This document shows positions 1,086 to 53,177 of a stretch of 64,000 nucleotides of DNA, piece after piece. The notes under the pieces were generated by a model. That model was not told where the DNA came from. It ran no database searches and was given only the letters and a program-made list of their open reading frames with translations. The DNA lies in sequence record PV390658.1. One strand, given 5' to 3'. Position numbers and translations under genes: made by a program. The stretch comes from Escherichia phage vB_EcoM_P54. Each line of letters begins with the position of its first letter. Within the stretch, counting starts at the first letter, position 1.

Positions 1086-2630
1086 TTTTATAAAATTTCA
1101 TCGGTTGTCCCAACCTCTGGGTCACCATCATATGTGAATAAAATATCTATCCTTCTTAACAACCTTCTTAAGCTTACTCTCTATATATAGTTATATAGTA
1201 CTATATAGTATCTTAGTATCTATCTAGTGGTCTTAATAGCCCTCTGTATAAACCTTCTAAATAGCCTTCTAACAAGCCTTCTTAACAACCTATACAATCA
1301 CCTTAACCATCCCTCTATACCCTCTTAGAAGCTCCTATACACCTCTTAATCTCTAGGTTACCTATGTTACCCTCTATAGGTGTTCACTAGGTATTACTAA
1401 GCCTCTATATAGACTGTTTTAACAAACTTAACAGGAATATCTTTACAGACCTTATCTCACAAGGTCTAACACGGTATTAACAAGGTATCTTATAAGCCTG
1501 TTTATGCCTGTATTTTTAAAAGACTGTCTAGGTAATTATTCAGAATTTTAAAATTTTTATAAAATAGGACTATCAAGTCATTTTTAGGGTCTTTGAAGGA
1601 ACTCAAAAATATCTGTAGAAGATGTATATCTGCTTGGTAGCCCTTAACATCCCTGTAACATCCCCTTTGCAGAATTTTAAAATATCATTAACAATCTCTT
1701 AACAACTCTCTCAAGCTCTTAACATCTCTTCAGAGGTCTTAACAGATTCTTAACAGAACTAACAAGGCTGTAATAAGTTCTTAACAGTCGATACATGGTC
1801 TTTATAGTCTCTTAACAGATGACTAACAAGAGCTAACAAGTTAATTTTTAAGAGTTATTTTGTTAAGATAATTAACAAGTTCCTAACAAGTGTTTAACCT
1901 TTTTAACAAGCTATTAACATGGTCACTATCTCTTTTCTTATCGTTCCCTTTCTTTCTTAGTGATTCTCTAAATAGCCCTCTTAAAAGCCCTCTATAGCTC
2001 CTTGTAAGCTCTTTTAAGCCTCTTCCTAGTAATTACACCCCAACTATGCAGACACCTTTTTATAAGGCTTTACAGGAGCTTTAAAGGCTATGTCAAAGAC
2101 TCTTACAAGGCTTTTACGTGGTATTAACAGAGATTTAACAAGGGGCTAACAAGTTGCTAACAAGTGCCTTAAAAGCATAACTATGTAGGGTTTGTTAAGA
2201 AATTGTTAAGAAAATGTTAAGGGGGCTAGCATTTACGTAACTTTATAGCTTCTTTTACGTAACTTTGAAGTGACTTTATAGCCCCTATAACATACTTTTT
2301 AGTTACTATCAAGTGGCTTGTTTAGTAGTTCACAAGATAGCTAACGAGATAATAAAGCTTATAACCTTATAAGATTCTTTTAAGCCTCTATAAAGCCCTG
2401 TAAAGAGTTTTTTAAGGTGAGTTAATGCAATCCCTTAAGTTAGGTTGATAAGGCTGTTATAGAGCTTTATAGAGCGTTTAAACGGTTGCCCTTCCCTTTC
2501 GGGTTATGGGCTTATATTTAAGTTGATTTGATAAAAGGTTATAGAGTAAGCTATAGAGTTATTGCTTTTAAGGTCTAGTAAGATTCTGGAAAGGTGAGGG
2601 AAAGGGATTGTATAAGGATTCAATAGACGT
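1086..2630. repeat. ORF-free repeat-rich region: more than 20 copies of YTAACARG-like octamers (both orientations) plus CTCTATA and TTTATAGC repeats
   Basis: No ORF of 60 aa or more on either strand; octamers cluster at 1269-1289, 1689-1921 and 2123-2222 (three inverted copies TTGTTAAG at 2191-2222); bounded by terminators at about 1057 and 2631. Confidence 0.7.
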
Positions 2631-2655
2631 AAAAAAGCCCCTTTAAATAGGGGCT
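2631..2655 (-). terminator. rho-independent terminator (minus strand)
   Basis: A-run 2631-2636 then AGCCCCT-TTAAAT-AGGGGCT hairpin, i.e. hairpin plus U-run on the minus transcript; a second hairpin GGGGCT-ATTT-AGCCCC at 2669-2684. Confidence 0.6.
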
Positions 2656-2694
2656 GTAAAAGGTATCTGGGGCTATTTAGCCCCGTTGCGTCGA

Positions 2695-2943
2695 TTAGTT
2701 GTAACCTTGTTTATTGTAGTACAGTGAGATAATCAAGTCACCCCAGTAATGATAGTGATGCTCGTCGTTTAATGCCTCTTTTACAGCGTCTTTCCAGAAG
2801 TCATCAGTAGGGTTATAATCTGGGATAACTTGCTTGATAACTGTCTTCACTAATGAAAAACACTCATCAGTTCCACCAATATCAAATTTAACGTCCAGAG
2901 TATAACAGCCATAAGCATTGACAGTTGCGCGGATAGTTGCCAT
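2695..2943 (-). CDS. hypothetical early protein (82 aa)
   Basis: ATG at 2943 directly downstream of a type A cassette with AGGAG SD. Confidence 0.6.
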   Translation of the reverse strand: MATIRATVNAYGCYTLDVKFDIGGTDECFSLVKTVIKQVIPDYNPTDDFWKDAVKEALNDEHHYHYWGDLIISLYYNKQGYN

Positions 2944-3037
2944 TTTTGAATCTCCTAGTTTAAGGACTTTACTTAGTGGGGAAGGTCATTCCCTCCCCGT
3001 TGATTGACAATTTACAGATTTTTGATTGTCTCGTCAA
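2944..3037 (-). promoter_or_regulatory. type A cassette: sigma70-like promoter, 5-prime-UTR hairpin, SD
   Basis: Minus strand: TTGACG (3032-3037), 17-nt spacer, TAAATT (3009-3014), then GGGGAGGGAATGACCTTCCCC hairpin and TAAACTAGGAGATTCAAAA-ATG. Confidence 0.55.
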
Positions 3038-3542
3038 TATCTTTTTCAATATCTTTTAAAGTTTTTTCTAAGTTCTTGATATTGAACGTTAAACCTTCAC
3101 CGAGAGTCTTAGAGTAACCGCTAGGGCGTAAATCATGCAGCTTGATTTCTTCCACTTCAAAGAGACTCACCGCCTCACCATTTACATCGTAGGCCATTGA
3201 TACAGTATTTTCAGGTGCGTTGTAAAACTTGTTTAAGGACTTGATAGAACGTTCATAAGCCATTTTATAGCTATTTAAAAGGTTTTTAACGTGGCTGTGA
3301 ACGTTTTTACACTCATCTAAATAAAGACCTAAAAACATCGGGAGAAGTTCCGCGACAGCTTGCATAAAGTGAGAGACTACAACGGTTGCAACATTACGAC
3401 GATGAACGTAATAAGCCCCGTTTTCTGATTTGGTAATGGTTGCAAAGTGTACCCCATTACAACGAAATTCATAGGTATCTTTAACAGGCTTAGACATTAC
3501 ATTATTTGAACGAATATAGTTGATAGCTTTGAATTTGTTCAT
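3012..3542 (-). CDS. hypothetical early protein (about 177 aa)
   Basis: ORF-track start 3635 reads through the cassette (translates as KVLKLGDSKM); start moved to ATG at 3542 abutting the cassette SD. Confidence 0.55.
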   Translation of the reverse strand: MNKFKAINYIRSNNVMSKPVKDTYEFRCNGVHFATITKSENGAYYVHRRNVATVVVSHFMQAVAELLPMFLGLYLDECKNVHSHVKNLLNSYKMAYERSIKSLNKFYNAPENTVSMAYDVNGEAVSLFEVEEIKLHDLRPSGYSKTLGEGLTFNIKNLEKTLKDIEKDIDETIKNL

Positions 3543-3635
3543 TTTAGAATCTCCTAGTTTAAGGACTTTACTTAGTAGGGAGGTTATTGCCTCCCCGTTG
3601 ATGAGTAATTTACTTGTTTTGATATCTGATTGCAA
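3543..3635 (-). promoter_or_regulatory. type A cassette
   Basis: TTGCAA (3630-3635), 17-nt spacer, TAAATT (3607-3612), conserved hairpin and SD. Confidence 0.5.
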
Positions 3636-3764
3636 GCAATTTTTTAAGTCTATCTATAAAGAATCTTTTAAGTTAATCCCTTTTAGATAAACCCCCTCGA
3701 ACAAAGTTACCAATGTCAAGAGGGATTGTCAACATCTTTTTAAAAGTTTTTTGTAAGTTATTGA

Positions 3765-4106
3765 TTAACTGATGAATATTTTTTCAGGTTTTACATAGCT
3801 GATACGCTGTCTTTTTAGCAGGTCATCCCAGATTAACGCGGCGATATGGGAGTAACCGGATTCACGTAAAAGTTTCATTGTTTTACTTCTCGTTTCAAAA
3901 CGGCTTACATAGTGCTCACTATTCAGCGTCGTTTTATTCCCTTCGTTGTCTACATGGATAATCTGCATCACTTGAAAGGGGCTTACATCCTCACCTTTAT
4001 TCCACTGCTCAAAGTATTTTAGGCACTGCATAGGTGACATCTTATCGCTTACTTGAGTTGACCAAGATGCGCCAGCTTTATCGGTAATTACAGTTACATA
4101 AGCCAT
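3765..4106 (-). CDS. hypothetical early protein (113 aa)
   Basis: ATG at 4106 abutting a type A cassette. Confidence 0.6.
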   Translation of the reverse strand: MAYVTVITDKAGASWSTQVSDKMSPMQCLKYFEQWNKGEDVSPFQVMQIIHVDNEGNKTTLNSEHYVSRFETRSKTMKLLRESGYSHIAALIWDDLLKRQRISYVKPEKIFIS

Positions 4107-4200
4107 TTTAGAATCTCCTAGTTTAAGGACTTTATTTAGTGGGGAAGGTCATTCCCTCCCCGTTGATTGACAATTTACAGACTTTTATCAGGCTTGTCTA
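4107..4200 (-). promoter_or_regulatory. type A cassette
   Basis: TAGACA (4195-4200), 17-nt spacer, TAAATT (4172-4177), GGGGAGGG-AATGA-CCTTCCCC hairpin and SD. Confidence 0.5.
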
Positions 4201-4431
4201 GTCTTTTTCAATGATAATTTCATATTGACCATCGACACTGTCAAAATAGACGCCGTCTTCGTCTTCTGTCTTAAAGTAGCATTGAATATCATCACTGGCG
4301 GGATAGTCTTGTCTTGCTATCTGGCAAACTTGAATAGCATTTTCTTTACTCCCTGTAAACTCCTCAAGCCCTTTAAAATCACATGAATGACCATTACAAA
4401 TAGAAAGGATAAGATAAACGGTTGTAAGCAT
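4198..4431 (-). CDS. hypothetical early protein (77 aa), hydrophobic N-terminus
   Basis: ORF with ATG at 4431; N-terminal MLTTVYLILSICNG looks like a signal or anchor segment. Confidence 0.5.
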   Translation of the reverse strand: MLTTVYLILSICNGHSCDFKGLEEFTGSKENAIQVCQIARQDYPASDDIQCYFKTEDEDGVYFDSVDGQYEIIIEKD

Positions 4432-4494
4432 GATTTAAGCCCTTTAAATGGCCCTGTATGGGCCTTAAGTTGGAAGTTGGTGTCTTTGTACTGA

Positions 4495-5058
4495 TTAACC
4501 TAAAAAGTCTTTTAAATTGCGTTCTGTGATGTTTGCCGTGATTTTATCCAGCAAGTCACAAAACACGGAACTATCACCGCTATTCTGTACAATTTTCGCC
4601 ATACTTAACAAATCATCGTCAACATAGCCTAAATTGCGGTTAGTTGCATCTGGTACAAAGAAAGGTGCATACATCGCACTAAATTTCGTCGAGTGAAGGC
4701 CAATAATCCAACCTTTATCAAAGTGTCCGGTAAAGCTGGCGATATTGCTCATGTTGTCACAAGAATAATCATCCTCTAGCTCTTCCTCTGGGATATCCAT
4801 CTCAATGACAATTACGTCCTGCGTTTCCATTTGGAAAGCTGCCGTAATAAGCCCAGATTCTAAAGCGTTTTGAATGCAGCGTTCACGAATGTAAGAATCT
4901 TCCTCATCTTCCAGACATTCCGTTTTGATAATCTTGTTCATTGGGTAAACGTAGAAACAATCATCCATGTATGAGCAGTTCCAGATTCCTTCCGGCTTGT
5001 CGCCACCATTCAGCAGGTTTACAAAGTTTTTGAGGGTAGTTCCGTGATAGCATTTCAT
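4495..5058 (-). CDS. early protein (187 aa), candidate PARP/diphtheria-toxin-like ADP-ribosyltransferase
   Basis: N-terminus MKCYHGTTLKNFVNLLNGG matches the HG[ST]-x3-N-h-x2-hL NAD-binding motif of H-Y-E class transferases; Tyr cluster CFYVY and acidic stretch VIVIEMDIPEEE downstream; motif-level only. Confidence 0.3.
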   Translation of the reverse strand: MKCYHGTTLKNFVNLLNGGDKPEGIWNCSYMDDCFYVYPMNKIIKTECLEDEEDSYIRERCIQNALESGLITAAFQMETQDVIVIEMDIPEEELEDDYSCDNMSNIASFTGHFDKGWIIGLHSTKFSAMYAPFFVPDATNRNLGYVDDDLLSMAKIVQNSGDSSVFCDLLDKITANITERNLKDFLG

Positions 5059-5138
5059 TTTTGAATCTCCAGTTTAGGATTTAGTGGTAAAGCTCTTTAT
5101 CTGGGGCTTACTTTATCGAACTATAAGCCCCTTGTAAA
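5059..5138 (-). promoter_or_regulatory. type B cassette: promoter embedded in a palindrome
   Basis: Minus strand: TTTACA (5133-5138), 17-nt spacer that is the 5-prime arm GGGGCTTA, TAAAGT (5110-5115) in the loop, 3-prime arm TAAGCCCC, then AGATAAAGAGCTTTACC and SD. Confidence 0.5.
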
Positions 5139-5143
5139 GTACT

Positions 5144-5392
5144 TTATTTAACTTTTTTTGAGAAAATTAGTTTAACTGCAACTGTAGGAATCTCGTCAGC
5201 GGTTGTAACCAGCATTACTTTTTGAGTGACCAACTTATAACCGTTCTTTGCAGCGTATGCGGTAAAACGGTTGACATTGTAACTATAAGTTTTTGGTGTG
5301 TTGTCTGGCATGTGGTAAAGAAAAGGTTTACCCAAGTTTTCTTCTTGTGTCAATAGTCGGCAGGTATCAGGGACATTGAAATAGTTCATCAT
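5144..5392 (-). CDS. hypothetical early protein (82 aa)
   Basis: ATG at 5392 abutting a type B cassette. Confidence 0.6.
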   Translation of the reverse strand: MMNYFNVPDTCRLLTQEENLGKPFLYHMPDNTPKTYSYNVNRFTAYAAKNGYKLVTQKVMLVTTADEIPTVAVKLIFSKKVK

Positions 5393-5472
5393 TTTTTAAT
5401 CTCCTAGTTTAAGGACTGTGTAAAGCTCTTTATCTGGGGCTTAAGATACCAACTTTTTAAGCCCCTTGTAAA
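5393..5472 (-). promoter_or_regulatory. type B cassette
   Basis: TTTACA (5467-5472), GGGGCTTAA...TTAAGCCCC palindrome with TATCTT in the loop, SD. Confidence 0.45.
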
Positions 5473-5484
5473 GTACTTTATTAC

Positions 5485-5682
5485 TTAATTTTTGACAACT
5501 TTTAAAACTGCAAGATAACCTAAGCAATAAGAATCACCGAAGAGAGTTCTACCCATGAAAGAATCCTCTTTGATATCCTTTGCAGTGACAGTTTTTTCTA
5601 CGCCGTGGGAAAGGACTACATCACCAACTTTGATATCTTTGATGTGTGTTGTTTCAATGGTTAAGCCGTTAATAATAGCCAT
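5485..5682 (-). CDS. hypothetical early protein (65 aa)
   Basis: ATG at 5682 abutting a type A cassette. Confidence 0.55.
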   Translation of the reverse strand: MAIINGLTIETTHIKDIKVGDVVLSHGVEKTVTAKDIKEDSFMGRTLFGDSYCLGYLAVLKVVKN

Positions 5683-5776
5683 TTTAGAATCTCCTAGTTT
5701 AAGGACTTTACTTAGTGGGGAAGGTCATTCCCTCCCCGTTGATTAGTAATTTAATCTATCTAAAAATCAGTGTCAA
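5683..5776 (-). promoter_or_regulatory. type A cassette
   Basis: TTGACA (5771-5776), 17-nt spacer, TAAATT (5748-5753), hairpin and SD. Confidence 0.6.
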
Positions 5777-5783
5777 CATCTTT

Positions 5784-6188
5784 TTAAAGTTCTGCGTAGA
5801 TTGCATCACAGACATCACGGAAATCATGATTTGTTAAGTTACGTTGTAACCAAGTGGCAAAGAAATCAGCGATTGCAAAATTAGCGTCATACTCGACGGA
5901 TAGCCACACTTTAACAGCAAATCGGAACATCTTTAAATCCAGCTCTTTATTCATTACCTTTGATTTGCCTAACATGTCGGCCATCTCATGTTGTGCACCG
6001 TCTAGCGTGATACCGGCTGCAACGTCAGCCAATGAGTTTTTTACGCTTTCAACGTCTAAGATAACACTTTGAATCTTCCCAATAATGTTTTGCAGTGTTT
6101 CATCCGGTGCTGCTGATGTGATAACATTAATCCGGTTAACGGTCAAACGTGCTTTTAAGATAGATAACTCACGATTATTAATAGCCAT
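5784..6188 (-). CDS. hypothetical early protein (134 aa)
   Basis: ATG at 6188 abutting a type B cassette. Confidence 0.6.
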   Translation of the reverse strand: MAINNRELSILKARLTVNRINVITSAAPDETLQNIIGKIQSVILDVESVKNSLADVAAGITLDGAQHEMADMLGKSKVMNKELDLKMFRFAVKVWLSVEYDANFAIADFFATWLQRNLTNHDFRDVCDAIYAEL

Positions 6189-6268
6189 TTTTGAATCTCC
6201 AATTTAGGATTTAGTGGTAAAGCTCTTTATCTGGGGCTTACTGTACAGACTTATAAGCCCCTTGTAAA
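6189..6268 (-). promoter_or_regulatory. type B cassette
   Basis: TTTACA (6263-6268), 17-nt spacer, TACAGT in the loop of the GGGGCTTA/TAAGCCCC palindrome. Confidence 0.45.
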
Positions 6269-6273
6269 GTACT

Positions 6274-6546
6274 TTATGCTAAATGCAGCTTTTTGCCTTT
6301 TACTATGATGTAACTTGATGCGCTATTGCCGCATACATCTTGATAAATTCTACGCAAACGGCCTTCGTAGTATACTTTCCAGCTAGTTGGAATCTTTTTC
6401 CCGTATCCGGTAGCAGTTTTTTGGAATCCTGCAAGTTGCCAATCCAAAATGTGCTGTTCAGCTTGTAAATCCTCGAAGTGCATTACACCGTTCACATAGT
6501 GGCGTAGGGTTACGTTTAAGGTGCGACCGTTGTTAGTAGTGTACAT
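6274..6546 (-). CDS. hypothetical early protein (about 90 aa)
   Basis: ORF-track start 6588 is a read-through of cassette sequence (KVLKLGDSKM); ATG at 6546 with AGGAG SD. Confidence 0.5.
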   Translation of the reverse strand: MYTTNNGRTLNVTLRHYVNGVMHFEDLQAEQHILDWQLAGFQKTATGYGKKIPTSWKVYYEGRLRRIYQDVCGNSASSYIIVKGKKLHLA

Positions 6547-6571
6547 TTTTGAATCTCCTAGTTTAAGGACT

Positions 6572-6730
6572 TTATTTTGACAGTTCACTAATTAAGACAT
6601 CAAAGATTATATCATTATCTGCTACAGTTGCAACACCAGTGATATAATCAATTTCTAAGATAACAACAACTTTCGTACATAAACCGTCATCTATATCATT
6701 CCAGACAACTTTATCACCTGCACAAAACAT
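6572..6730 (-). CDS. small hypothetical protein (52 aa, MFCAGDKVVWNDIDDG...)
   Basis: Not in the ORF track (under 60 aa); ATG at 6730 sits exactly at the conserved position after a complete type A cassette. Confidence 0.45.
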   Translation of the reverse strand: MFCAGDKVVWNDIDDGLCTKVVVILEIDYITGVATVADNDIIFDVLISELSK

Positions 6731-6825
6731 TTTTAGAATCTCCTAGTTTAAGGACTTTATTTAGTGGGGAAGGTCATCCCCTCCCCGTTGATGTGTAATT
6801 TAACCTATCTAAAAATCAGTGTCAA
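6731..6825 (-). promoter_or_regulatory. type A cassette
   Basis: TTGACA (6820-6825), 17-nt spacer, TAAATT (6797-6802), hairpin and SD. Confidence 0.6.
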
Positions 6826-7154
6826 ACACTTTGTTTCCGTTTGCTCAATTCTTGAACAATTACAGCGTGATAGTCTTTCAAGTCACTGATGTTTAAAGCA
6901 TTTATCAGAGAATTATAATCATCAACTAACTGGAAATCATCTTTGAAGATGTCACTTATCTGATAGGTTTTCGCTTTATATCTGAAGCTCATCTCTAGCC
7001 GCTTTATTTGCTCATCACTTAAACGCCCTAGAAAGCTCTCTACAAGGTTATTGCTAACTTGCTGTGTGATTGCCTTATTTGCTAGATTATAGGCTTTATA
7101 TGCCTTATATAGCGCGAAAATGGCAATGATTGCAGTGATACCAGTCATTAACAT
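6822..7154 (-). CDS. hypothetical membrane-anchored protein (110 aa)
   Basis: N-terminal hydrophobic helix MLMTGITAIIAIFALY; start overlaps the upstream stop (ATGTTAATGA). Confidence 0.55.
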   Translation of the reverse strand: MLMTGITAIIAIFALYKAYKAYNLANKAITQQVSNNLVESFLGRLSDEQIKRLEMSFRYKAKTYQISDIFKDDFQLVDDYNSLINALNISDLKDYHAVIVQELSKRKQSV

Positions 7155-7444
7155 GGTGTTTCCTCTTTACGTGATACTTTGCCATTTACAGTTATCTCAT
7201 AGGATTCTAATAAATCGCTTTTAGACTTTACAGGACTTTTAAAAGTATCATCATAAACATTAATTTGCAATACAGGCTTTTTATACTCCCTGCAACTATT
7301 CCATAAGCAAATCACTACACGACGGCCTTTTATTTTGCCGTGTAACCATTCCATAACATCATGACTATTCCTTGATGTCTCTATAAAATCAATTTTGTTG
7401 AGTAATTTGCTAAGGTTTTCTCTAACTTTATTTGATAATTTCAT
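7148..7444 (-). CDS. hypothetical early protein (98 aa)
   Basis: ATG at 7444 abutting a type B cassette. Confidence 0.55.
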   Translation of the reverse strand: MKLSNKVRENLSKLLNKIDFIETSRNSHDVMEWLHGKIKGRRVVICLWNSCREYKKPVLQINVYDDTFKSPVKSKSDLLESYEITVNGKVSRKEETPC

Positions 7445-7527
7445 TTTAGAATCTCCTAGTTTAAGGGCTTTATTTGATAAATCTCTCTATCTGGGGCTAT
7501 CATATCCGCTTGTTAGCCCCGTGTAAA
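7445..7527 (-). promoter_or_regulatory. type B cassette
   Basis: TTTACA (7522-7527), 17-nt spacer, TATGAT (5/6 match) in the loop of the GGGGCT/AGCCCC palindrome. Confidence 0.5.
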
Positions 7528-7536
7528 GAAATCTAT

Positions 7537-8049
7537 TTAGTTCTTAAAGATATTCATCACTGAATCTTTCAACGATTCCAAACGTTCTAATACTTCAGTT
7601 TCTGCGTCTGAATTGTTCACCTCTTCTTTTAGTCTATCCTCTAAATCATCGCCGTCACGATAGCACCAATCGAAAGCATAACCAAGATAAAAACTTTCTA
7701 AAACCGTGTTACCGTTTGCATCCACAACTTTCGCGGCAAGGTTGTACTCTGAAGCCTCTAAATCTCTTTCTAGTTCTTTTTGTAAGCTTGCGTAAGCCTC
7801 TTTTGATGGATTTTCCCGGCCTTGTTTTGCATAGTCACTTGAAAGCTGTTTAAGGCTGTAATGCAAAGGGATTGCATATTTAAAATCATTATGCTGACAG
7901 TTAGGATTTTTAACAGTCACACCGCCTTGATGGTCGTTTGTAAACTCCCAATTATCGAGATTATGGCTTGCTTCGTAGAAATTTACCGCTTCGTAGATGA
8001 TGGAAAATTTTTCTTTTACAACTTCAAAGGTAGCGTCTACAGTTTTCAT
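7537..8049 (-). CDS. hypothetical early protein (170 aa)
   Basis: ATG at 8049 abutting a type B cassette. Confidence 0.6.
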   Translation of the reverse strand: MKTVDATFEVVKEKFSIIYEAVNFYEASHNLDNWEFTNDHQGGVTVKNPNCQHNDFKYAIPLHYSLKQLSSDYAKQGRENPSKEAYASLQKELERDLEASEYNLAAKVVDANGNTVLESFYLGYAFDWCYRDGDDLEDRLKEEVNNSDAETEVLERLESLKDSVMNIFKN

Positions 8050-8131
8050 TTTTGAATCTCCTAGTTTAAGGATTGAGTGGTAAAGCTCTTTATCTGGGGC
8101 TTAAGATATCAGCTTTTAAGCCCCCTGTAAA
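8050..8131 (-). promoter_or_regulatory. type B cassette
   Basis: TTTACA (8126-8131), GGGGGCTTAAAAGCTGATATCTTAAGCCCC palindrome with TATCTT. Confidence 0.45.
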
Positions 8132-8139
8132 GTACTTTA

Positions 8140-8397
8140 TCAGATTAAATTGCCAGTTAATGATAAGTGCATTTTATAGCCTTTTTTGGTAAACACGTTT
8201 ACTTTACCGAGTGATTTTACACCTTTAAAAAGGTTGTTTGAATTACGTTTTAAGGTTAATTGTTTATCAGCCTTCACGCCCCATCTTACAGTGTATTGTT
8301 TTCCGTTGTCAACCACTTTTCCGCCTAACTTTTTCGCCATGATGCGAGCGTCATCACGAGTTTTTGCAGGAATTACAACGTTTTTGATAATAGCCAT
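8140..8397 (-). CDS. hypothetical basic protein (about 85 aa)
   Basis: ORF-track start 8412 is TTG inside the cassette; ATG at 8397 after SD. Confidence 0.5.
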   Translation of the reverse strand: MAIIKNVVIPAKTRDDARIMAKKLGGKVVDNGKQYTVRWGVKADKQLTLKRNSNNLFKGVKSLGKVNVFTKKGYKMHLSLTGNLI

Positions 8398-8478
8398 TTT
8401 TAAGTTCTCCAATTTAGGATTGAGTGGTAAAGCTCTTTATCTGGGGCTTACTTTATCGAACTATAAGCCCCTTGTAAA
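8398..8478 (-). promoter_or_regulatory. type B cassette
   Basis: Near-identical to the cassette at 5059-5138; TTTACA at 8473-8478. Confidence 0.5.
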
Positions 8479-8486
8479 GTACTTTA

Positions 8487-8867
8487 TCAGTTAATTTTGA
8501 AAATTGTCACATAGCCGTCACTGCCGATTATTTGAGACACTCCAGCTTTTTCCACTGAATAGCCCATATTTTCAAGATGATAAACAGCATCATCATAACC
8601 ATATGCGCCACCCTGATAACGTCTCTTATCGCATCTTATCAGGTTTTTACCACGTCCTGCAAGTGCATTCAGTACAGCTTTTTCACTTGATAGCGTACCA
8701 TCTAACATGGTTGCTGTGTAATGGTTGATTCTATTCCCGTTTACATCATACTTAAAATTGAATGCGTGAACAACAATCAATTTGCCGTTAAATTTTTCAT
8801 CAAGTGACTTCTCCAGTGCGTTGCGGAAGTTGTCTTTGTTAATGAATTTCGGTGCACGATAAGCCAT
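8487..8867 (-). CDS. hypothetical early protein (126 aa)
   Basis: ATG at 8867 abutting a type B cassette. Confidence 0.6.
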   Translation of the reverse strand: MAYRAPKFINKDNFRNALEKSLDEKFNGKLIVVHAFNFKYDVNGNRINHYTATMLDGTLSSEKAVLNALAGRGKNLIRCDKRRYQGGAYGYDDAVYHLENMGYSVEKAGVSQIIGSDGYVTIFKIN

Positions 8868-8950
8868 TTTTGAATCTCCTAGTTTAAGGGTTAATTTAGT
8901 AAAGCTCTTTATCTGGGGCTTAAGATATCAGCTTTTAAGCCCCCTGTAAA
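8868..8950 (-). promoter_or_regulatory. type B cassette
   Basis: TTTACA at 8945-8950; palindrome GGGGGCTTAA...TTAAGCCCC. Confidence 0.45.
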
Positions 8951-8957
8951 GTACTTT

Positions 8958-9164
8958 TTATATATCGTAATAGTAAACCGCTGTCTGTTTTATATGTCGC
9001 TTTGTATTCTTCGTAAGGTAGCAATTAGAATTGATTGCCGTTTCTACATAGTTGCAATAATCAGCTTCTGATATTCTACGCCATGCGCCGCACACTTGCA
9101 TGTAAAAACGTTTTACCTTTGTATTAACGTTGGTTGTAACCATCAATTCACGGCTGTAAATCAT
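8958..9164 (-). CDS. hypothetical early protein (68 aa), first gene of the leftward array
   Basis: ATG at 9164 after TAAACTGGAGATTTAAAA SD region. Confidence 0.5.
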   Translation of the reverse strand: MIYSRELMVTTNVNTKVKRFYMQVCGAWRRISEADYCNYVETAINSNCYLTKNTKRHIKQTAVYYYDI

Positions 9165-9213
9165 TTTTAAATCTCCAGTTTAGGAAGTAGGCTTGTTTGC
9201 CTGTCTGATGCAA

Positions 9214-9242
9214 ATACTAAATAACCATAGTCAGAGAGTCAA
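9214..9242 (-). promoter_or_regulatory. candidate sigma70-like promoter for the leftward early array
   Basis: Minus strand TTGACT (9237-9242), 17-nt spacer, TAGTAT (9214-9219). Confidence 0.4.
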
Positions 9243-9404
9243 TAGGAATTTTAAAAATATTTTTGCAAAAAACTGTAATGAAACGGGCGCACGCGACTAC
9301 CACAAAACAGAACTACAATCAAGAATTATTTTTCAATCCGCTACAAATTTTTCTGTTGACTTTTCTTTTCAGATGTGGTAGCCTTGTGAGAAATGGCGAC
9401 ATCC

Positions 9405-9600
9405 CCACCTGCACCCACCTACCTGCACAATTCTAAAATGATTTTTCTTGCCCGACCTGAGCGGGGTCTGCACGTTTTGAAAATGAAAAAGCTCTTTGGA
9501 GATTACCTGCACAGTTTGAAAATGAATTTTCTCTTTGGAGTTCAAAATTTTCTCTACAGATTTCTGTCCAGAACTCTACCTGCACAATCCTGAAATGAAA
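9405..9600. repeat. four degenerate direct repeats, core ACCTGCACA-N-TTYTRAAATGA
   Basis: Copies at about 9418-9440, 9466-9490, 9502-9527 and 9575-9600; CTCTTTGGAG also repeated at 9491 and 9531. Confidence 0.6.
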
Positions 9601-9671
9601 AAGCCCTCCTTACCTGAAAAATTTACCAGATAAGAAAGGCTTAGCCTATTGTGAATATTCTACAGAGTTTC

Positions 9672-10457
9672 TTAGTTCTTTGCGTCTAAGAAGGTTACTT
9701 CCGGTGAAGAGAAAATCTCCTCAACATCCTCATCAGTTCTTGCATAGATATATGTATCTGCATCGCTGCCAAATGTTACTGCAATTCTGTGATTGCTCTT
9801 CGACAGGTGGGTAACTAGAGCGTTACTTAGAGACATCTTTTCAACCGGAGGGTTACTTTGATGTATCTTGCCTTTTCTTCGTCTGAAGAGGGTAACTACA
9901 TCATTAGTGAACACTACTACACCAGCAAAGTATTCTGGTTCACAGTAGTTCTTCCAACCTGAGCGTAACTTGTGGTACATCTCTCCTTCATAGACATACA
10001 GATACACATCTACACTCTTCATCACCTGATTAATGATGACTGTGACGGCTTGAGAGTCTAGTCCACCGATACCTGCACCAATCATAGGTAACCCAACTTT
10101 CTTCAACTGATTGACTTCACAGTATCTGTTAAGCTGTTTCAAAGATGACTCTAAAGCACTGTATCGGGCATCTTTACCAGTCTTAAGCTGAGTGTAAAGG
10201 TTAGCTATACGGCCTTGTTCTAAACGTGCTACAGAGAAATTGCCTAGTAAATTTTCACAGGGTTTGTGACCTATACCACCTGCATACAGATAGACTTCTG
10301 TATCAGTCTCATATGCTTTTGGGTAAAGTTTAGAAATCTTGTCAGCGATACCTGCACCCATTAAATTCATACAGTTGCAACCGTGACCAATAATATCAAA
10401 CTTACCTTTATCAAATGCGGAGAAGATATCCCCATTGATGATTTTTACAATACCCAT
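9672..10457 (-). CDS. macrodomain-like protein (261 aa), putative ADP-ribose binding or hydrolase
   Basis: N-terminal VKIINGDIF...FDIIGHGCNCMNLMGAGIADKI and GLPMIGAGIGGLD resemble macrodomain motifs GDIT...DAIVNAAN...GGGV and ISTGIYG; extra C-terminal region of about 110 aa. Confidence 0.5.
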   Translation of the reverse strand: MGIVKIINGDIFSAFDKGKFDIIGHGCNCMNLMGAGIADKISKLYPKAYETDTEVYLYAGGIGHKPCENLLGNFSVARLEQGRIANLYTQLKTGKDARYSALESSLKQLNRYCEVNQLKKVGLPMIGAGIGGLDSQAVTVIINQVMKSVDVYLYVYEGEMYHKLRSGWKNYCEPEYFAGVVVFTNDVVTLFRRRKGKIHQSNPPVEKMSLSNALVTHLSKSNHRIAVTFGSDADTYIYARTDEDVEEIFSSPEVTFLDAKN

Positions 10458-44798: not shown

Positions 44799-44977
44799 CA
44801 TAAACCAACGGGTACTCACCAGCATCACTTAAGAGTCTTCTAAGAAGGTTTTTAAGTGATGCTCGGTCAGGTATGGTGCGGTGGTGTAAGGTGGTGTCAG
44901 GTGTAGTATGGTGCGGTGATGTGAGGTATGGGTAGTTAGTCTCAGCTACATTAAAATGAGACTTACCTTTTTAAAAG
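44799..44977 (+). ncRNA. candidate small structured RNA (about 175 nt)
   Basis: Downstream of the promoter at 44765; 12-bp stem AGCATCACTTAA/TTAAGTGATGCT (44821-44863); GGT-phased tract; hairpin AGTCTCA-GCTACATTAAAA-TGAGACT (44938-44963) followed by a T-rich run; no ORF. Confidence 0.35.
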
Positions 44978-45760
<783 letters not shown>

Positions 45761-45762
45761 TT

Positions 45763-46203
45763 ATGAATACAAAAGCATTAGCAGCAAAGTTTAGTTACGG
45801 TGACACTGTATCACATTCTGAGATGGATACCTTCTTAGGTATTGCGAAGCCAACTTATCAAGGTGACATTGTTAAGTACGAAGATGAAATGAAGGCTTAT
45901 GCACTTACACGTCTAAACCGACTTGAGAAGTTTATTGAGAAGCTCCTTAAAGAAGAGAAGATTTATCTGGTTGCTTCAATGGGTGTTGGTTATCGTGTGG
46001 TTGAGCCTAAGCATCAAGCAACTATTGCAAAACGCAAAATGTCTGGTAAGATTGGTCGTGCTTTAAAGCAAGCCACTCAAGCAATTGAGAATGTGAACAC
46101 TATGGCACTTAGCCATCAAGAACGTTCACGACTGATTGAACAGCAAAACCATTTAGCTGCTATGAAAGCTAACATTAACAAGCAACGTAGAAAACCTTTC
46201 TAA
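45763..46203 (+). CDS. hypothetical protein (146 aa)
   Basis: ORF from the track, followed by a terminator. Confidence 0.55.
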   Translation: MNTKALAAKFSYGDTVSHSEMDTFLGIAKPTYQGDIVKYEDEMKAYALTRLNRLEKFIEKLLKEEKIYLVASMGVGYRVVEPKHQATIAKRKMSGKIGRALKQATQAIENVNTMALSHQERSRLIEQQNHLAAMKANINKQRRKPF

Positions 46204-46212
46204 GTTGACTAG

Positions 46213-46238
46213 GTAGCCTCTTCGGAGGCTCCTTTTTA
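46213..46238 (+). terminator. rho-independent terminator (plus strand)
   Basis: AGCCTC-TTCG-GAGGCT hairpin followed by TTTTT. Confidence 0.65.
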
Positions 46239-46500
46239 AAAGGTCTTTAAGAGGGTCTTTTAATAAGGCTCGGCAATGTTCGGCATGGTCTGGTATAGTC
46301 CGGTGCTGTTCGGCGTGGTAAGGTGAGGTATGGGTAGTTAATCGGAGCTACATTAAAATTCGATTACATCACTTAAGAGTCTTCTAAGAGGATTTTTAAG
46401 TGTTGTGAGGCGAGGTACGGTCGGGTATGGCTATGTCTGGTATGGTTTGGTATGGAAGGATGGCAGCAGCCTTATAAAAAATCTGCCAAATAAGCTATAA
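46239..46500 (+). repeat. paralogous copy of the GGT-phased structured module
   Basis: Shares with 44799-45157 the box TTAAAAGGTCTTTAA.AGGGT.TTTTAATAAGG, GGT-phased tracts, GGTATGGGTAGTTA...GCTACATTAAAA and CACTTAAGAGTCTTCTAAGA; hairpin stem changed compensatorily (AATCGGA/TTCGATT versus AGTCTCA/TGAGACT). Confidence 0.55.
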
Positions 46501-50743: not shown

Positions 50744-53131
50744 TTAAGCAGTTCTTACCCAAGCCATTAACTTATAGAACTGGTTAGTAACACTAAATGC
50801 TGAACCAGAACCTGTACTACCAGTGTTACCACTAACTGTGTGGCTGTGAGCACCAATACCTACAGAGTGGGAATGGTCACCAGCACCGCTTGTAGTACCA
50901 GACCATGTGTGTGTATGGTTACCAGTTGTGTTAGTGTTAGGGAACTTGTTATCTCTTCTATCAAGCCAGTCAAGCGTTCTAGGGAGGCTGTTACCAACTG
51001 TTGTATATCCGTACAAAGCATCACCACCATTAACCAATAGCAGACCTAAGTGGTGAGCGTGGTTACCAGCAGCACTTGTTGTACCACTTACAGAGTGAGT
51101 ATGACCACCAGTACTATTAGTGCCCTTCGTACCATAATCAAAAGATGAAGTGGTAGCAGAGAAACTGTGAGTGTGTGATGGTAAGTTACCAACAGCTAAC
51201 GTCACAGAATCTGAACCACCTGTTGTAGCAACATCTGAACCGTTTGCTGCTGCGATTCTGATAGTTCTACCAACACCATTGTTCAGGTACGTCCAAGTTA
51301 GACCAGGAAGTGCTGTATTAGGGTCAACATTACTGTTAAACCACGTTACAATACCTACTGGATAGATTTTATTAAGGTCTGTAGAGTCACTAATTGCTGT
51401 TGCAATTTTCTGGTCAGTTTCTGCTTTAGTGTATGCACCAATCTCTGAAGGGGTTGGTCTCTGAGCTTCGGTGTAAACCTTAGACCATACATCCTCAAAA
51501 CCAAGTGCATCTCTGGCTGTTCTGTACCACATCCCACCATTTTTGTACCTAAACTTTAATTGTGCAGATGGTGTAGAGGCTTTCGTATTACAAAACAGGT
51601 TTAAGACTAAGAGTTCTGCCCCACCATCACTTGTTGATTCAGTGTAGATTCCTGAAGGTTGGTTCCAAGCTACACCACCTTCAGTCTCTTTTACCAGACC
51701 TCTGGATGCTGACCAGAAATACTTCGAATCAGTTTCTGATTTACCGTAGTATCTTGCATCAATGTTAGCCCAATCAGAGGGTTGAACTTGACCATTGATT
51801 TTCACTGTTTTATTTAGAAAAAAGTCATCTTGCATAAAAATAGTGGTCCCAGCTTTATCATTGTGGATAATGAGTTTAGATGGGTTTTCTACCTCGCCAT
51901 TCCCGATGTACCATCTTCTCACATTATCAGCGTTATAACCAGCAAAGTATAGTGCATTATCCTGAACAGTGTTTCTTAGCTGTAACGATAGGTCATCTTG
52001 GAGAATAACTTGTGTAGACCTGAAAATGTTCATGTCACTGAGTTTAGCAAGATTACTCAAAGTAGCTGCTGGAATGTATCTAGAGTCAATGTTAGTCCAA
52101 TCAGAAGGTTGAACTTGACCAGTGATTCTCACAGTCTTAGTAGCACTAATCACATCTGACAAAGAGATGGTTGTGCTTGTGCTGTAGTTGTGCAGATTAA
52201 CTACAGAGTCAGAAGTATCAGTCCCTAAGTAGAATTTGCTTGTACCATCAGCCTTCACTCCAAGTAGGTATAGTCCGGTTGCATTAGAGGCATTCTTAAT
52301 AACTAACGCAGCATTATTTCTGGTAATTTTGAACTCACCTACAAAATTATTAATACCACTAAAGGTGTTATCACCAGCTAGCTGTGCAAATCTCTGATTA
52401 GCTACTGTCTGAGTAAAGTATCTAGCATCTAAGTTAGAGAAGTCAGAAGGTTGAACTTGACCCATGACTCTTAGTGTCTTGTTAAATGACGCTGTTGCGT
52501 CAAGGGTTAACATTGAGCCAGTGGCATGATTGTACAGATAAACATTAGTGTTGTTTGCATTTCCCTGTCCAACATACCACGTTTGCTGGTTATTAGCATC
52601 TCTACCCTGAATATATGAAGCTCCTGCATTCGTTGCTTTCTTAAGGGTTAACTGCTCACCATCAGTTACAATTGCTTGCCTAATGTTGAAGTTATTTGTT
52701 ACAGCCAGCCTTGCATATCTTGCATCATTCTCTTCATTAGTTCTCATCCCAAGTTCATTAGGGCTTGGTTTATTCAGAGTATGATAAACAGTTGCCGACC
52801 TTGAAGCATCTGCAATAGTCAGTTTAAGGCCATTTGCGTTGATTTTAAAAGTCTTTAAAACATCCCCAATAGTAACCTCAGAAGAGCCTGTTGGGTTAAA
52901 GACTACCTTACCACCATAAAGTAACTTAACAATCCCTAAATCACCCGTCATGGTACTACCAGCAATCTGAACAAACCTTTCAAGTTTAAAAGATGCTAAG
53001 AAGTCTTGATAGGTCATTCGACGGTCTTCATCACCCAGCATTTCAGGTCTCTTTTTAACTCTGACATGAAGAAGGTCATCTGAACGGATTGTGTCGATTG
53101 AGTTTAATTCACTCAACTTGTAATCTGCCAT
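50744..53131 (-). CDS. long tail fiber protein (795 aa)
   Basis: Three internal repeats GQVQPSD(F/W)xN(L/I)D(A/S)RY; C-terminal Gly/Ser/Thr/His-rich region with GHTHS/GNHAHH/GDHSHS His-x-His boxes. Confidence 0.75.
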
Positions 53132-53145
53132 TATAAATTTTCCTC

Positions 53146-53168
53146 TTAAAAGGGGCTATAAAGCCCCT
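53146..53168 (-). terminator. hairpin between the two tail fiber genes
   Basis: Minus strand TTTACA then GGGGCTTTATAGCCCC then UUUU. Confidence 0.45.
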
Positions 53169-53177
53169 GTAAAGAAA

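Follow-up and report, generated by a model that had tools for sequence, protein, structure and literature searches.

Repeated promoter-hairpin-leader cassettes in the early region of a Felixounavirus: candidate modular expression units and joints for gene gain and loss

Cassettes of the early region

The window analyzed here, a 64-kb stretch of DNA from Escherichia phage vB_EcoM_P54 (PV390658.1), belongs to a Felixounavirus and is 97% identical to vB_EcoM-LTH02. It holds five minus-strand copies of a cassette, type A, at the coordinates proposed in an earlier sequence-only reading, and each copy directly abuts an ATG that opens an ORF (with ends at 2943, 3542, 4106, 5682, and 6730). Type A cassettes, type B cassettes, and bare leader modules together head almost every small ORFan of a ~7-kb early region. 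Its elements are as follows.

2636..2655, minus strand: canonical intrinsic terminator (Felix O1 't23') bounding the cassette region on its downstream side
2944..3037, minus strand: type A cassette 1, 5' of the 82-aa ORF 2695-2943 (ATG 2943-2941); promoter with -35 TTGACG 3037-3032, -10 TAAATT 3014-3009, and predicted start at ~3001; leader with hairpin 2998-2978 and SD AGGAG 2956-2952
3543..3635, minus strand: type A cassette 2, 5' of the 176-aa ORF 3012-3542 (ATG 3542-3540); -35 TTGCAA 3635-3630; -10 TAAATT 3612-3607; hairpin 3596-3577, a variant (GGGGAGG-CAATAA-CCTCCCT, 7 bp, -12.5 kcal/mol)
4107..4200, minus strand: type A cassette 3, 5' of the 113-aa ORF 3765-4106 (ATG 4106-4104); -35 TAGACA 4200-4195; -10 4177-4172; hairpin 4161-4141
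5056..5147, minus strand: type B cassette, one of seven
5393-5472, 6186-6277, 7445-7527, 8049-8140, 8396-8487, and 8868-8959 (approximate): the other type B cassettes
5683..5776, minus strand: type A cassette 4, 5' of the 65-aa ORF 5485-5682 (ATG 5682-5680); -35 TTGACA 5776-5771; -10 5753-5748; predicted start at ~5740; hairpin 5737-5717
6544..6574, minus strand: bare leader/ribosome-binding module TAAAGTCCTTAAACTAGGAGATTCAAAAATG, 5' of the 90-aa ORF 6274-6546, with no promoter or hairpin
6731..6825, minus strand: type A cassette 5, 5' of the 52-aa ORF 6572-6730 (ATG 6730-6728); -35 TTGACA 6825-6820; -10 6802-6797; hairpin GGGGAGGG-GAUGA-CCUUCCCC 6786-6766
9165..9242, minus strand: P0 cassette, the first of the region, with type A layout (ATG 9164); -35 TTGACT 9242-9237, 17 nt, -10 TAGTAT 9219-9214, TTGCATCAGAC; small hairpin AGGC-AAACAA-GCCU 9202-9189, unrelated to the type A hairpin; leader variant CCTAAACTGGAG
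9601..9642, minus strand: canonical intrinsic terminator (Felix O1 't13') bounding the cassette region on its upstream side

The -35 hexamers listed for type A are those assigned in the sequence-only reading, and the claimed 17-nt spacer (exact) and -10 TAAATT were found in all five copies. A promoter consensus scan with a threshold of 9/12 listed four of them; the TTGCAA copy fell below the threshold and was confirmed by eye. Three copies overlap the end of the upstream gene: the TAA of the -10 in cassette 1 is the stop codon of ORF 3012-3542, the TAG of the -35 in cassette 3 that of ORF 4198-4431, and a TGA within the -35 of cassette 5 that of ORF 6822-7154. A repeat search returned a five-copy, 102-nt family (D2) precisely at the five sites, with a mean column identity of 81% in the five-way alignment and with TAAATT...ATCAACGGGGAGG through the SD invariant.

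The hairpin first described, with an 8-bp stem and an AAUGA loop, is correct for type A generally but not for cassette 2 (7 bp, CAATAA) or for the loop of cassette 5 (GAUGA). With its one G·U pair it folds at -15.2 kcal/mol in ViennaRNA (z = -3.6), compared with -11.8 kcal/mol for the complementary strand. The 30-mer CAACGGGGAGGGAATGACCTTCCCCACTAA occurs four times at ≤1 mismatch (0 expected, 100 shuffles), and the leader, rightly called near-identical, occurs as TAAAGTCCTTAAACTAGGAGATTCTAAAATG seven times at ≤3 mismatches (0 expected); the matches at 6544 and 7442 lack a type A promoter or hairpin. The peptide KVLKLGDSKM is indeed this leader translated in two ORFs, 3012-3635 (TTG start) and 6274-6588 (GTG start), and is an ORF-calling artifact of over-extended mechanical ORFs rather than protein.

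Apart from P0, which has the layout but an unrelated hairpin, the rest of the 64-kb window yielded no further copy of the type A architecture. The original picture of five type A cassettes was incomplete in that it took up neither the larger cassette set nor the joints for gene gain and loss described below. Type B cassettes are ordered as -35 TTTACA, a spacer hairpin (GGGGCUUA...UAAGCCCC) with a -10-like TAnnnT in its loop, AGATAAAGAGCTTTAC, leader, and ATG, with the hairpin between -35 and -10. The leader module has 11 copies in the window, all inside 2929-8898, and all tested downstream products were PHROGs of unknown function.

Conservation of the promoter and the hairpin

By blastn, the 94-nt cassette matched 1308 places in 250 phage records, or ~5 per genome, all of them ~85- to 90-kb phages of Escherichia, Salmonella, Shigella, or Citrobacter. 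Comparison across related phages placed the cassettes in Mooglevirus and Suspvirus as well, and identity between genera was 0.78-0.79 for the non-coding upstream sequence versus 0.72-0.76 for coding sequence. The comparative evidence backs the anatomy that had been proposed, namely, a sigma-70-type promoter, a 5'-terminal hairpin, and a strong SD.

For the promoter, we compared 115 unique cassettes, among which are 13 unrelated spacer families. Because the extraction pattern fixed T1, A2, and T6 of the -10 and left the -35 free, the -35 and the spacing alone are free of bias. The -35 carried 1.34 bits/position versus 0.46 in the spacer across the 13 families, and its TTG stood at exactly 17 nt in 12 to 13 of them. 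These sequence comparisons support the presence of a host sigma-70 promoter, from which transcription would begin at the predicted start sites. In Felix O1, ORFs 16, 20, 21, and 22, which lie behind such cassettes, peak at 5 min postinfection by RT-PCR. We found no transcription start, half-life, or termination work on these phages in the searchable literature.

The hairpin is kept in relatives, with 53 of 55 unique variants folding at ≤-7 kcal/mol in the same position, at a median z of -4.4. Stability favored the sense strand in 37 variants and the antisense strand in 17 (Wilcoxon P = 1.4e-4), a difference due to G·U pairs. Homopolymer indels break a column-wise alignment of the hairpin. Co-variation was assessed by permuting arms: native pairings of 5' and 3' arms averaged -12.0, versus -10.9 ± 0.2 after permutation, and 0 of 10,000 permutations were as stable, although kinship among the variants means that both this figure and the Wilcoxon value overstate independence. 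Retained folding, co-varying arms, and the favored sense strand support selection on a putative RNA hairpin.

These comparisons also bear on whether the copies are functionless, either neutral remnants of recent local duplications or chance matches. The copies are closely alike, and this AT-rich DNA abounds in promoter-like matches (53 versus 38.6 expected). However, the chance expectation is zero for both the hairpin and the leader, the flanking genes are mutually unrelated and fall in separate blastp clusters, and the cassettes are kept in three genera with coding nucleotide identity down to ~72 to 76%. As the -35 and its spacing are also conserved across unrelated spacers and the hairpin arms co-vary, this reading is already disfavored, and we regard it as highly improbable.

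In type A and P0-type cassettes alike, the stem always begins 10 to 11 nt past the -10, which would leave ~3 unpaired nt after the predicted start (the A of ATCAAC). It is possible, if tentative, that the hairpin serves mainly to pair the 5' end of the mRNA, blocking RppH and the RNase E 5' sensor and prolonging the life of early mRNA. Secondary structure at the 5' end is an established stabilizer, since RppH and RNase E require single-stranded 5' ends (PMC3997798). The same position is taken by two unrelated hairpin sequences, the second being GGGC-AAGCAA-GCCC, which stands behind the same promoters and for which an A-U/G-C compensatory variant exists. In addition, the G·U pairs make the hairpin an RNA-sense structure, and it ends ~24 nt before the SD, so that ribosomes should not be blocked. 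On the other hand, in the Erwinia phage phiEa104 (Kolesnikvirus), the -10 falls within the equivalent hairpin (GAGGGG-UUAAAAU-CCCCUC), and ATCAAC comes after it, which would place the hairpin outside the cassette's own transcript, and the type B hairpin likewise sits between -35 and -10. RppH may also still gain access via the three unpaired nucleotides, as the Bacillus enzyme needs two unpaired nt and prefers three or more (PMC3997798). A 5'-stabilizing action is plausible on the sequence evidence; it concerns the role of the hairpin alone and is compatible with the explanation that we prefer, in which the cassettes are modular units of early expression.

Gene gain and loss at cassette boundaries

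Gene maps of 13 phages showed a fixed gene order, with presence/absence differences bounded nearly always by cassettes of the same type (g14, g18, g16, g12, g9-g12, g8...g12, g10/g11, and g5-g6). Since cassettes fill almost every intergenic region, such boundaries are partly unavoidable; what is informative about recombination is that the end points match in type and that the chimeric junctions carry no scar. In three-way alignments, the upstream part of the junction in the shorter genome follows the left cassette and its downstream part the right one, and the change from one to the other falls within the sequence that they share. Similarity is about the same between cassettes at different positions (0.88) as between orthologous ones (0.89). 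In phages without the 52-aa ORF 6572-6730, a complete type A cassette replaces the bare module at 6544..6574, and in four other phages the P0 promoter is joined to a type A hairpin. The accessory ORFans are patchy: 241 records have g0, 82 have g18, and 25 have g16, 22 of these 25 at ≥99% amino-acid identity. The cassettes thus appear from sequence to be recombination joints for gene gain and loss, like the PeSL of T4-type phages.

Alternatively, the invariant leader, consisting of the hairpin and the 25-nt ribosome-binding module, could be a shared operator through which one phage or host factor switches the early ORFan set post-transcriptionally. Such a factor might be a translational repressor like RegA, a GGAG-specific endoribonuclease like RegB, or an antiterminator of the N/boxB kind. 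At 11 genes, ~25 nt are nearly invariant, in this region of the window only, which exceeds the needs of an SD, and between genera the non-coding upstream sequence is as conserved as coding sequence. The lambda nut boxB and the rrn boxB-boxA are antitermination signals of similar build, with a small promoter-proximal RNA hairpin, a purine-rich loop of ~5 nt, and then a conserved single-stranded block; the cassette hairpin is of boxB size, with a purine-rich loop of 4 to 6 nt. However, the leader matches the rrn boxA consensus at only 8 of 13 positions, and the second leader allele less well. Nor is loop or stem conserved in sequence: loops vary freely (AAUGA, GAUAA, CAAUAA, AUGA, AACAA, GAGA...), as do stem sequence and length, and this argues against a sequence-specific loop binder. 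Further, two leader alleles, CCTTAAACTAGGAG and CCTAAAYTGGAG, interchange at the same gene in different phages, no N-like protein or other candidate binding protein was identified, and no Rfam family matched. As recombinational homogenization accounts for the conservation without any binding factor, we consider a shared operator improbable.

Comparison with known systems and a proposed role

The closest counterpart is the PeSL, the promoter-early stem-loop cassette of T4-like phages (Arbiol, Comeau & Krisch 2010, PMC2839356; Comeau et al. 2014, PMC4122927). Both are repeated intergenic motifs of ~100 bp with a sigma-70-type early promoter, an A/T-rich upstream tract, and a polyG/polyC stem-loop with G-T pairs, beginning at upstream stop codons and ending in an SD and ATG. 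Both cluster in an ORFan-rich variable region, where indels are bounded by the motif and crossovers fall within it. Stem positions vary among PeSL, some lying downstream of the -10, and type B, whose stem stands between -35 and -10, has the arrangement most often seen in PeSL. In contrast, the type A stem-loop follows the predicted start, in the 5' UTR, and the ribosome-binding module is here itself a long conserved repeat, also found alone. The relation is one of analogy and not of common descent, there being no detectable sequence homology, and this phage is of a different subfamily, the Ounavirinae (~87-kb genomes). Promoter and terminator activity and mini-circles are experimentally established for PeSL, whereas the present cassettes are known from sequence.

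A PeSL stem-loop cut downstream lacZ expression about as strongly as rrnB T1 (PMC2839356), and by analogy the hairpin might attenuate or terminate read-through, or protect the 3' end of the upstream cistron, insulating each gene module. Where the hairpin stands with respect to the promoter varies, but in every cassette type and genus it comes after the stop codon of the upstream gene and before the following ribosome-binding site. Three of the five type A copies have that stop within the -35 or -10, so that the hairpin falls 15 to 40 nt past it. In the AYO145A and ASO1B records some copies are labeled 'promoter' and the hairpin 'rho-independent terminator', the type A hairpin being annotated as a WebGeSTer terminator in the ASO1B GenBank record. 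But the stem is followed by ACUAAAUAAAG and not by a U-tract, none of the cassette hairpins passed the terminator scan, and canonical U-tract terminators serve the true boundaries of the region. An insulating role for the hairpin is possible, though less likely than not.

The 5' UTR stem-loops that stabilize ompA and papA mRNA in E. coli (Belasco laboratory, cited in review PMC3997798) share with type A a stable hairpin a few nt from the 5' end, after which come an A/U-rich stretch free of structure and an SD. By this analogy the cassette hairpin would be expected to impede RppH and the 5' sensor of RNase E. Here, though, it is a multi-copy mobile repeat with a putative function rather than part of a single-gene UTR, and in related phages the same hairpin stands upstream of the start.

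The repeats themselves have been seen before. Whichard et al. (2010) listed 39-bp (TTGACACTGGTTTTTAGATAGATTAAATTACACATCAAC) and 57-bp direct repeats in Felix O1, which they left uninterpreted, stating that the promoters and temporal control of this phage were unknown. The former is the type A promoter and the latter is type B. In the searchable literature, we found nothing that links these repeats to gene shuffling or that analyzes the hairpin.

The morons of lambdoid phages, which Juhala and co-workers are said to have described in 2000 as autonomous promoter-gene-terminator units between genes, are likewise small accessory genes with their own expression signals, variably present in syntenic genomes. 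Morons are individually distinct, however, and have no one shared flanking repeat, whereas here one common cassette brings the signals for expression and also the homology for recombination.

Taken together, repetition, conservation, a promoter signature, a maintained hairpin, and cassette-bounded indels and crossovers are all observed, and we propose, with a probability of roughly 75%, that the cassettes are modular early-gene expression units, analogous to PeSL, whose shared repeat drives gene shuffling. Each would comprise an A-rich upstream tract, a host sigma-70 promoter (-35, 17 nt, and -10 TAAATT), the conserved start region ATCAAC, a G-rich/C-rich hairpin ~3 nt past the predicted start, an A/U-rich spacer, and a standard ribosome-binding module, CCTTAAACTAGGAGATTCWAAAATG. 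As an RNA element, the hairpin may stabilize the mRNA of its own cassette much like a 5' cap, and/or it may serve as a 3' stabilizer or attenuator for read-through from the upstream gene. With a cassette or leader module before almost every small ORFan and two bounding terminators, each gene would be an autonomous, strongly expressed unit. As direct repeats of 60 to 100 nt, the cassettes would allow homologous recombination to delete, insert, or swap the intervening genes, each event leaving a single intact chimeric cassette.

Cassette anatomy and setting

The canonical U-tract terminators at 9601-9642 and 2636-2655 (t13 and t23 of Felix O1) enclose 16 small ORFs. Nearly every one of these follows a type A or P0 cassette, a cassette of a second family (type B), or a bare leader module, that is, the shared repeat ending at ATG. 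All type A copies fall between t13 and t23, and the leader repeat, with 11 copies in the window, is confined to this region as well. The products that could be tested belong to PHROGs of unknown function.

Putative expression cassettes of the region
2944-3037, minus strand, type A copy 1
3543-3635, minus strand, type A copy 2
4107-4200, minus strand, type A copy 3
5683-5776, minus strand, type A copy 4
6731-6825, minus strand, type A copy 5
9165-9242, minus strand, P0 cassette, first of the region, type A architecture with a small unrelated hairpin
5056-5147, minus strand, type B
5393-5472, minus strand, type B
6186-6277, minus strand, type B
7445-7527, minus strand, type B
8049-8140, minus strand, type B
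8396-8487, minus strand, type B
8868-8959, minus strand, type B
6544-6574, minus strand, bare leader module without promoter or hairpin

From 5' to 3', a type A cassette consists of an A-rich tract, the -35 hexamer, 17 nt, TAAATT, four variable bases, ATCAAC, the hairpin, ACTAARTAAAG, CCTTAAACTAGGAGATTCWAAA, and ATG. The minus strand at the five intervals agrees with the sequence-only reading in every detail: the -35 hexamers are those claimed (TTGACG, TTGCAA, TAGACA, TTGACA, and TTGACA), and the 17-nt spacer and TAAATT -10 are exact in all five copies. The 8-bp hairpin with one G·U pair that had been described holds for the main form (-15.2 kcal/mol), while the copy at 3577-3596 is a 7-bp variant. 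The peptide KVLKLGDSKM, which had been noticed in two genes, is the leader translated within two over-extended mechanical ORFs. In a five-way alignment, the cassettes are invariant from the -10 to the SD save for the top of the hairpin and its loop, as is the upstream AAA tract; the invariant ATCAAC is followed in each window copy by a hairpin made of a G-run and a C-run. The SD and downstream ATG occupy the 3' end of the cassette and the upstream stop codon its 5' end, where in three window copies it lies within the -35 or -10, and ORF ends directly follow the cassettes (2943, 3542, 4106, 5682, and 6730). A 30-mer around the hairpin occurs four times at ≤1 mismatch and a 31-mer of the leader seven times at ≤3 mismatches, with zero expected in both cases, and a repeat search returned a five-copy family of 102 nt (D2) at the type A positions. 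The type A copies are real, far more than chance would give.

Upstream of type A copy 2, at 3695-3733 on the minus strand, there is also a promoter-like element (TTGACA, 17 nt, TAACTT) whose -10 is bracketed by the 5-bp stem CCCTC...GAGGG and which is annotated as a promoter in the AYO145A record. Together with copy 2, it would give the 176-aa ORF at 3012-3542 two tandem promoters.

Type B cassettes carry a -35 (TTTACA), a 9-bp hairpin GGGGCUUA...UAAGCCCC in the spacer with a -10-like TAnnnT in its loop, followed by AGATAAAGAGCTTTAC and the leader. Each of the 46 type B variants from related phages folds, and in the Erwinia phages a G-C pair is replaced by U-A, a compensatory change. The leader module itself has two alleles, CCTTAAACTAGGAG and CCTAAAYTGGAG (minus strand, 2929-8898 in the window, and the related loci L001-L038), and a gene preceded by one of them in one phage can be preceded by the other elsewhere; for each allele, a weak hairpin of 3 to 4 bp is predicted in which UCC(U) pairs with (A)GGA of the SD. 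The sole intergenic space of the block without a cassette, at 4432-4494 (minus strand), holds the hairpin GGCCC-AUACA-GGGCC followed by AUUUAAAGGGCUUAAAUCAUG.

Repeats of other kinds were seen elsewhere in the window. The 1.6 kb at 1082-2635, between convergent terminators, contains no ORF of ≥40 aa in any frame; 25 of the 93 YTAACAR matches in the window fall in 1156-2209, 22 of these 25 on the plus strand, and CTCTATA and CCTTCTTAA-like repeats are present as well. The segment looks like an iteron array, possibly a replication origin or an array for a DNA-binding protein. Long imperfect direct repeats (families D6-D11) at 44823-46455 and 50831-53678, in large minus-strand coding regions, are probably those reported within Felix O1 genes 76 and 77.

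Promoter signature and hairpin

The region shares 97% identity with Escherichia phage vB_EcoM-LTH02, and 251 records of Felix O1-like phages match it. The cassette alone matches 1308 places in 250 phage records by blastn, or ~5 per genome, including members of Mooglevirus and Suspvirus at ~80% identity. Comparison of the window with 38 related loci supports the anatomy of promoter, hairpin, and SD that had been proposed from the window. The Felix O1 genome paper listed a 39-bp "direct repeat", which is the type A promoter, and a 57-bp repeat, which is the second element; it offered no interpretation and described promoters and temporal control of the phage as unknown. Two GenBank records label some copies as promoters. 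A literature search for start-site or RNA-seq studies of Felixounavirus found none.

From the window and the 38 related loci we extracted 115 unique cassettes with a pattern that left the -35, spacer, and hairpin unconstrained; -10 positions 1, 2, and 6 were fixed by this pattern and are not counted as evidence. The cassettes form 13 families with unrelated spacers, several of which consist of the 3' end of the preceding gene's coding sequence. Across the 13 families, the -35 hexamer holds 1.34 bits per position versus 0.46 for the spacer, and its TTG is present in 12 to 13 of the 13, always 17 nt from the -10. In Felix O1, RT-PCR had shown transcripts of ORFs 16, 20, 21, and 22, which lie downstream of such cassettes, to be maximal at 5 min, and those of ORFs 19 and 23 at 25 min. 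Because the -35 and the 17-nt spacing are conserved across unrelated spacers and the Felix O1 genes are early, sequence evolution lends good support to type A as a predicted sigma-70 early promoter. The predicted transcription start of type A is the A of ATCAAC, which lies 8 nt past the -10; that of type B is at AGAUAAAG, immediately 3' of the hairpin.

The hairpin slot varies in sequence and keeps its fold. Of 55 unique hairpin-slot sequences, 53 form a structure of ≤-7 kcal/mol in the same place (median z = -4.4), with stems that include GGGGAGGG/CCUUCCCC, GGGGAGG/CCUCCCY, GGGAGG/CCUCCC, GGGGGG/CCUCCCC, and the register-shifted GUGAGG/CCUCAC; the loop sequence is not conserved. RNAalifold predicted zero pairs for 45 unique variants, since indels in the G and C runs break the column alignment and column covariation cannot be scored, and per-sequence folding, a sense/antisense comparison, and an arm-permutation test were used in its place. 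The transcript-sense strand is the more stable in 37 variants versus 17 for the reverse (P = 1.4e-4), because wobble pairs occur in the transcript sense only, and native 5' and 3' arms pair better than arms swapped between variants (0/10,000 permutations), although both figures overstate independence, as the variants are related. The strongest point for selection on the hairpin is an unrelated one at the same slot: GGGC-AAKCAA-GCCC lies at the same distance behind the first promoter of the region, with the compensatory form AGGC/GCCU at 9189-9202 in the window, and in Suspvirus it stands behind the same promoters that carry the GGGGAGGG hairpin in the window. Rfam 15 covariance models gave zero matches at gathering score across the whole window, and at E ≤1 in 2400-9800 the sole match was a chance mir-22 on a type B hairpin.

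The position of the hairpin relative to the promoter is variable: after the -10 in type A, between the -35 and -10 in type B, and around the -10 in the Erwinia phage phiEa104 (Kolesnikvirus). The homologous cassette of phiEa104, at 3880-4305 in the locus compared, reads TTGACA, 18 nt, TAAAAT, with the hairpin GAGGGG-UUAAAAU-CCCCUC enclosing the -10, and ATCAAC comes next here too, with a related leader, CCCTTAAACAGGAATC. In the course of evolution, the stem-loop has therefore shifted relative to the promoter.

These positions bear on what the hairpin does. The protection against 5'-end-dependent decay first suggested for it is a plausible hypothesis that probably covers only part of its role. 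The type A stem starts ~3 nt after the predicted start, which is the geometry of 5' stabilizers; these work because RppH and RNase E require single-stranded 5' ends (PMC3997798), and a 5'-terminal mRNA stabilizer of the ompA type is a plausible role for this stem. Such a role does not suit the phiEa104 hairpin, which precedes ATCAAC, or that of type B, in the promoter spacer. Both precede the predicted start and can form only in RNA reading through from the upstream gene. It is possible that the hairpin acts on such transcripts as a 3' stabilizer, attenuator, or insulator, which fits what has been proposed for the PeSLs (promoter-early stem-loop cassettes) of T4-like phages. The 5'-stabilizer and read-through readings are about equally supported and are not mutually exclusive. 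An intrinsic (rho-independent) terminator, the label that one GenBank record gives the hairpin from WebGeSTer, was rejected: the hairpin is followed by ACUAAAUAAAG, without a U-tract, and a terminator scan that reported t13 and t23 reported none of the cassette hairpins.

A sequence-specific protein site at the hairpin, such as the translational regulator's site that had been considered, is disfavoured because loop and stem vary freely. A shared post-transcriptional operator is conceivable given how long the invariant leader is, and hairpin and ~25-nt module together might form a cis-operator or "self" tag through which a single phage or host factor acts on the whole ORFan set, an idea we consider unlikely. 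If it held, the factor might shield these mRNAs from phage-induced RNA decay or, alternatively, impose a RegA/RegB-like shut-off at the early-to-middle switch or let RNA polymerase read through downstream type B hairpins.

Several other candidates were rejected. A mini-ORF in the hairpin loop (ATG ACC TTC CCC ACT AAG TAA) loses its ATG in the CAATAA, GATAA, and AACAA loops and would have an SD spacing of just 2 nt; GGAGG in the 5' arm as a ribosome site is replaced by all-G arms (GGGGGG) in some variants; and, on a boxA-like reading, the leader matches 8 of 13 positions of the consensus, the second leader allele faring worse.

Gene gain and loss at cassettes

In 13 phages whose gene order was mapped, the small genes keep a single order, in which individual genes or blocks are present or absent (g14, g18, g16, g12, g9-g12, g8 through g12, g10/g11, and g5-g6). 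In 9 of 10 cases, the two cassettes on either side of the missing block are of one type, and exactly one remains in the shorter genome. The window, for instance, lacks g14, which its 97% relative LTH02 carries between two type A cassettes. In five cases examined by three-way alignment, the short genome follows the left cassette and switches within shared sequence to the right one. Cassette-bounded indels are partly unavoidable, because nearly every intergenic space holds a cassette; what is informative is that the end points are of the same type and the chimeric junctions scarless.

Promoter, hairpin, and leader are recombined with one another as well: one promoter can carry different hairpins, and a given gene either of the two leader alleles. 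Cassettes at different positions are about as similar (0.88) as orthologous ones (0.89). Concerted evolution within genomes gives at most a weak signal (non-orthologous copies, 0.881 within versus 0.870 between genomes), and paralogy of the genes as the source of cassette likeness was rejected, as the downstream proteins fall in separate clusters.

Gene distributions are also uneven. The gene g0 is present in 241 records and g18 in 82, Erwinia phages included, while g16, the cassette-flanked 52-aa ORF at 6572-6730 (minus strand, zero PHROG match), occurs in only 25 of ~250 related phage records, in 22 of them at ≥99% amino acid identity. Neighboring genes in the phages with g16 differ by 5 to 15%, and this pattern suggests recent horizontal spread of the gene. 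Taken together, the most informative property of the cassettes is that they are recombinogenic, modular expression units structuring the accessory early region of Felix O1-like phages.

Likeness to PeSL cassettes and its meaning

A PeSL is a repeated motif of ~100 bp that combines a sigma-70 early promoter and the AT-rich tract upstream of it with a polyG/polyC stem-loop containing G-T pairs. Five placements of the stem-loop relative to the promoter occur, including one downstream of the -10. PeSLs end in an SD and ATG, are concentrated in ORFan-rich hyperplastic regions, and mediate indels and mini-circle formation (PMC2839356, PMC4122927). The cassettes described here are likewise intergenic motifs of ~100 bp repeated many times per genome, with a sigma-70-like sequence signature behind an A/T-rich tract, a stable polyG/polyC stem-loop with G-T pairs whose position varies among type A, type B, and phiEa104, an SD and start codon at the 3' end with the upstream stop codon at the 5' end, a place in a variable, ORFan-rich region, and motif-bounded indels with the crossover inside. 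Six of seven architectural and evolutionary features match, the promoter as a sequence signature with predicted activity, and type B has the classical PeSL layout. No sequence relatedness to T4-type PeSLs was detected by blastn (11-base words). Because matches stay within Felix O1-like, Moogle-like, and SUSP-like records, we class the cassettes as a likely functional analogue of PeSLs in another subfamily rather than a homologue.

Felix O1-like phages are widely used for typing, biocontrol, and therapy of Salmonella and E. coli. To our knowledge, cassette-mediated modular shuffling has so far been described only for T4-like phages. By this analogy, the PeSL concept would extend to the Ounavirinae, a clear and testable extension rather than a new kind of element, and the predicted promoters give the much-used Felix O1-like phages a first promoter map. 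The cassettes offer a testable set of putative immediate-early promoters and leaders for host-takeover ORFans, as well as a compact natural part combining promoter, 5' hairpin, and RBS, whose recombinogenic nature has to be reckoned with where engineered therapeutic phages must stay genetically stable. The comparison shows that such shuffling has shaped a second subfamily of myoviruses as well, in the accessory early genes of at least three genera, which explains the patchy distribution of these ORFans.
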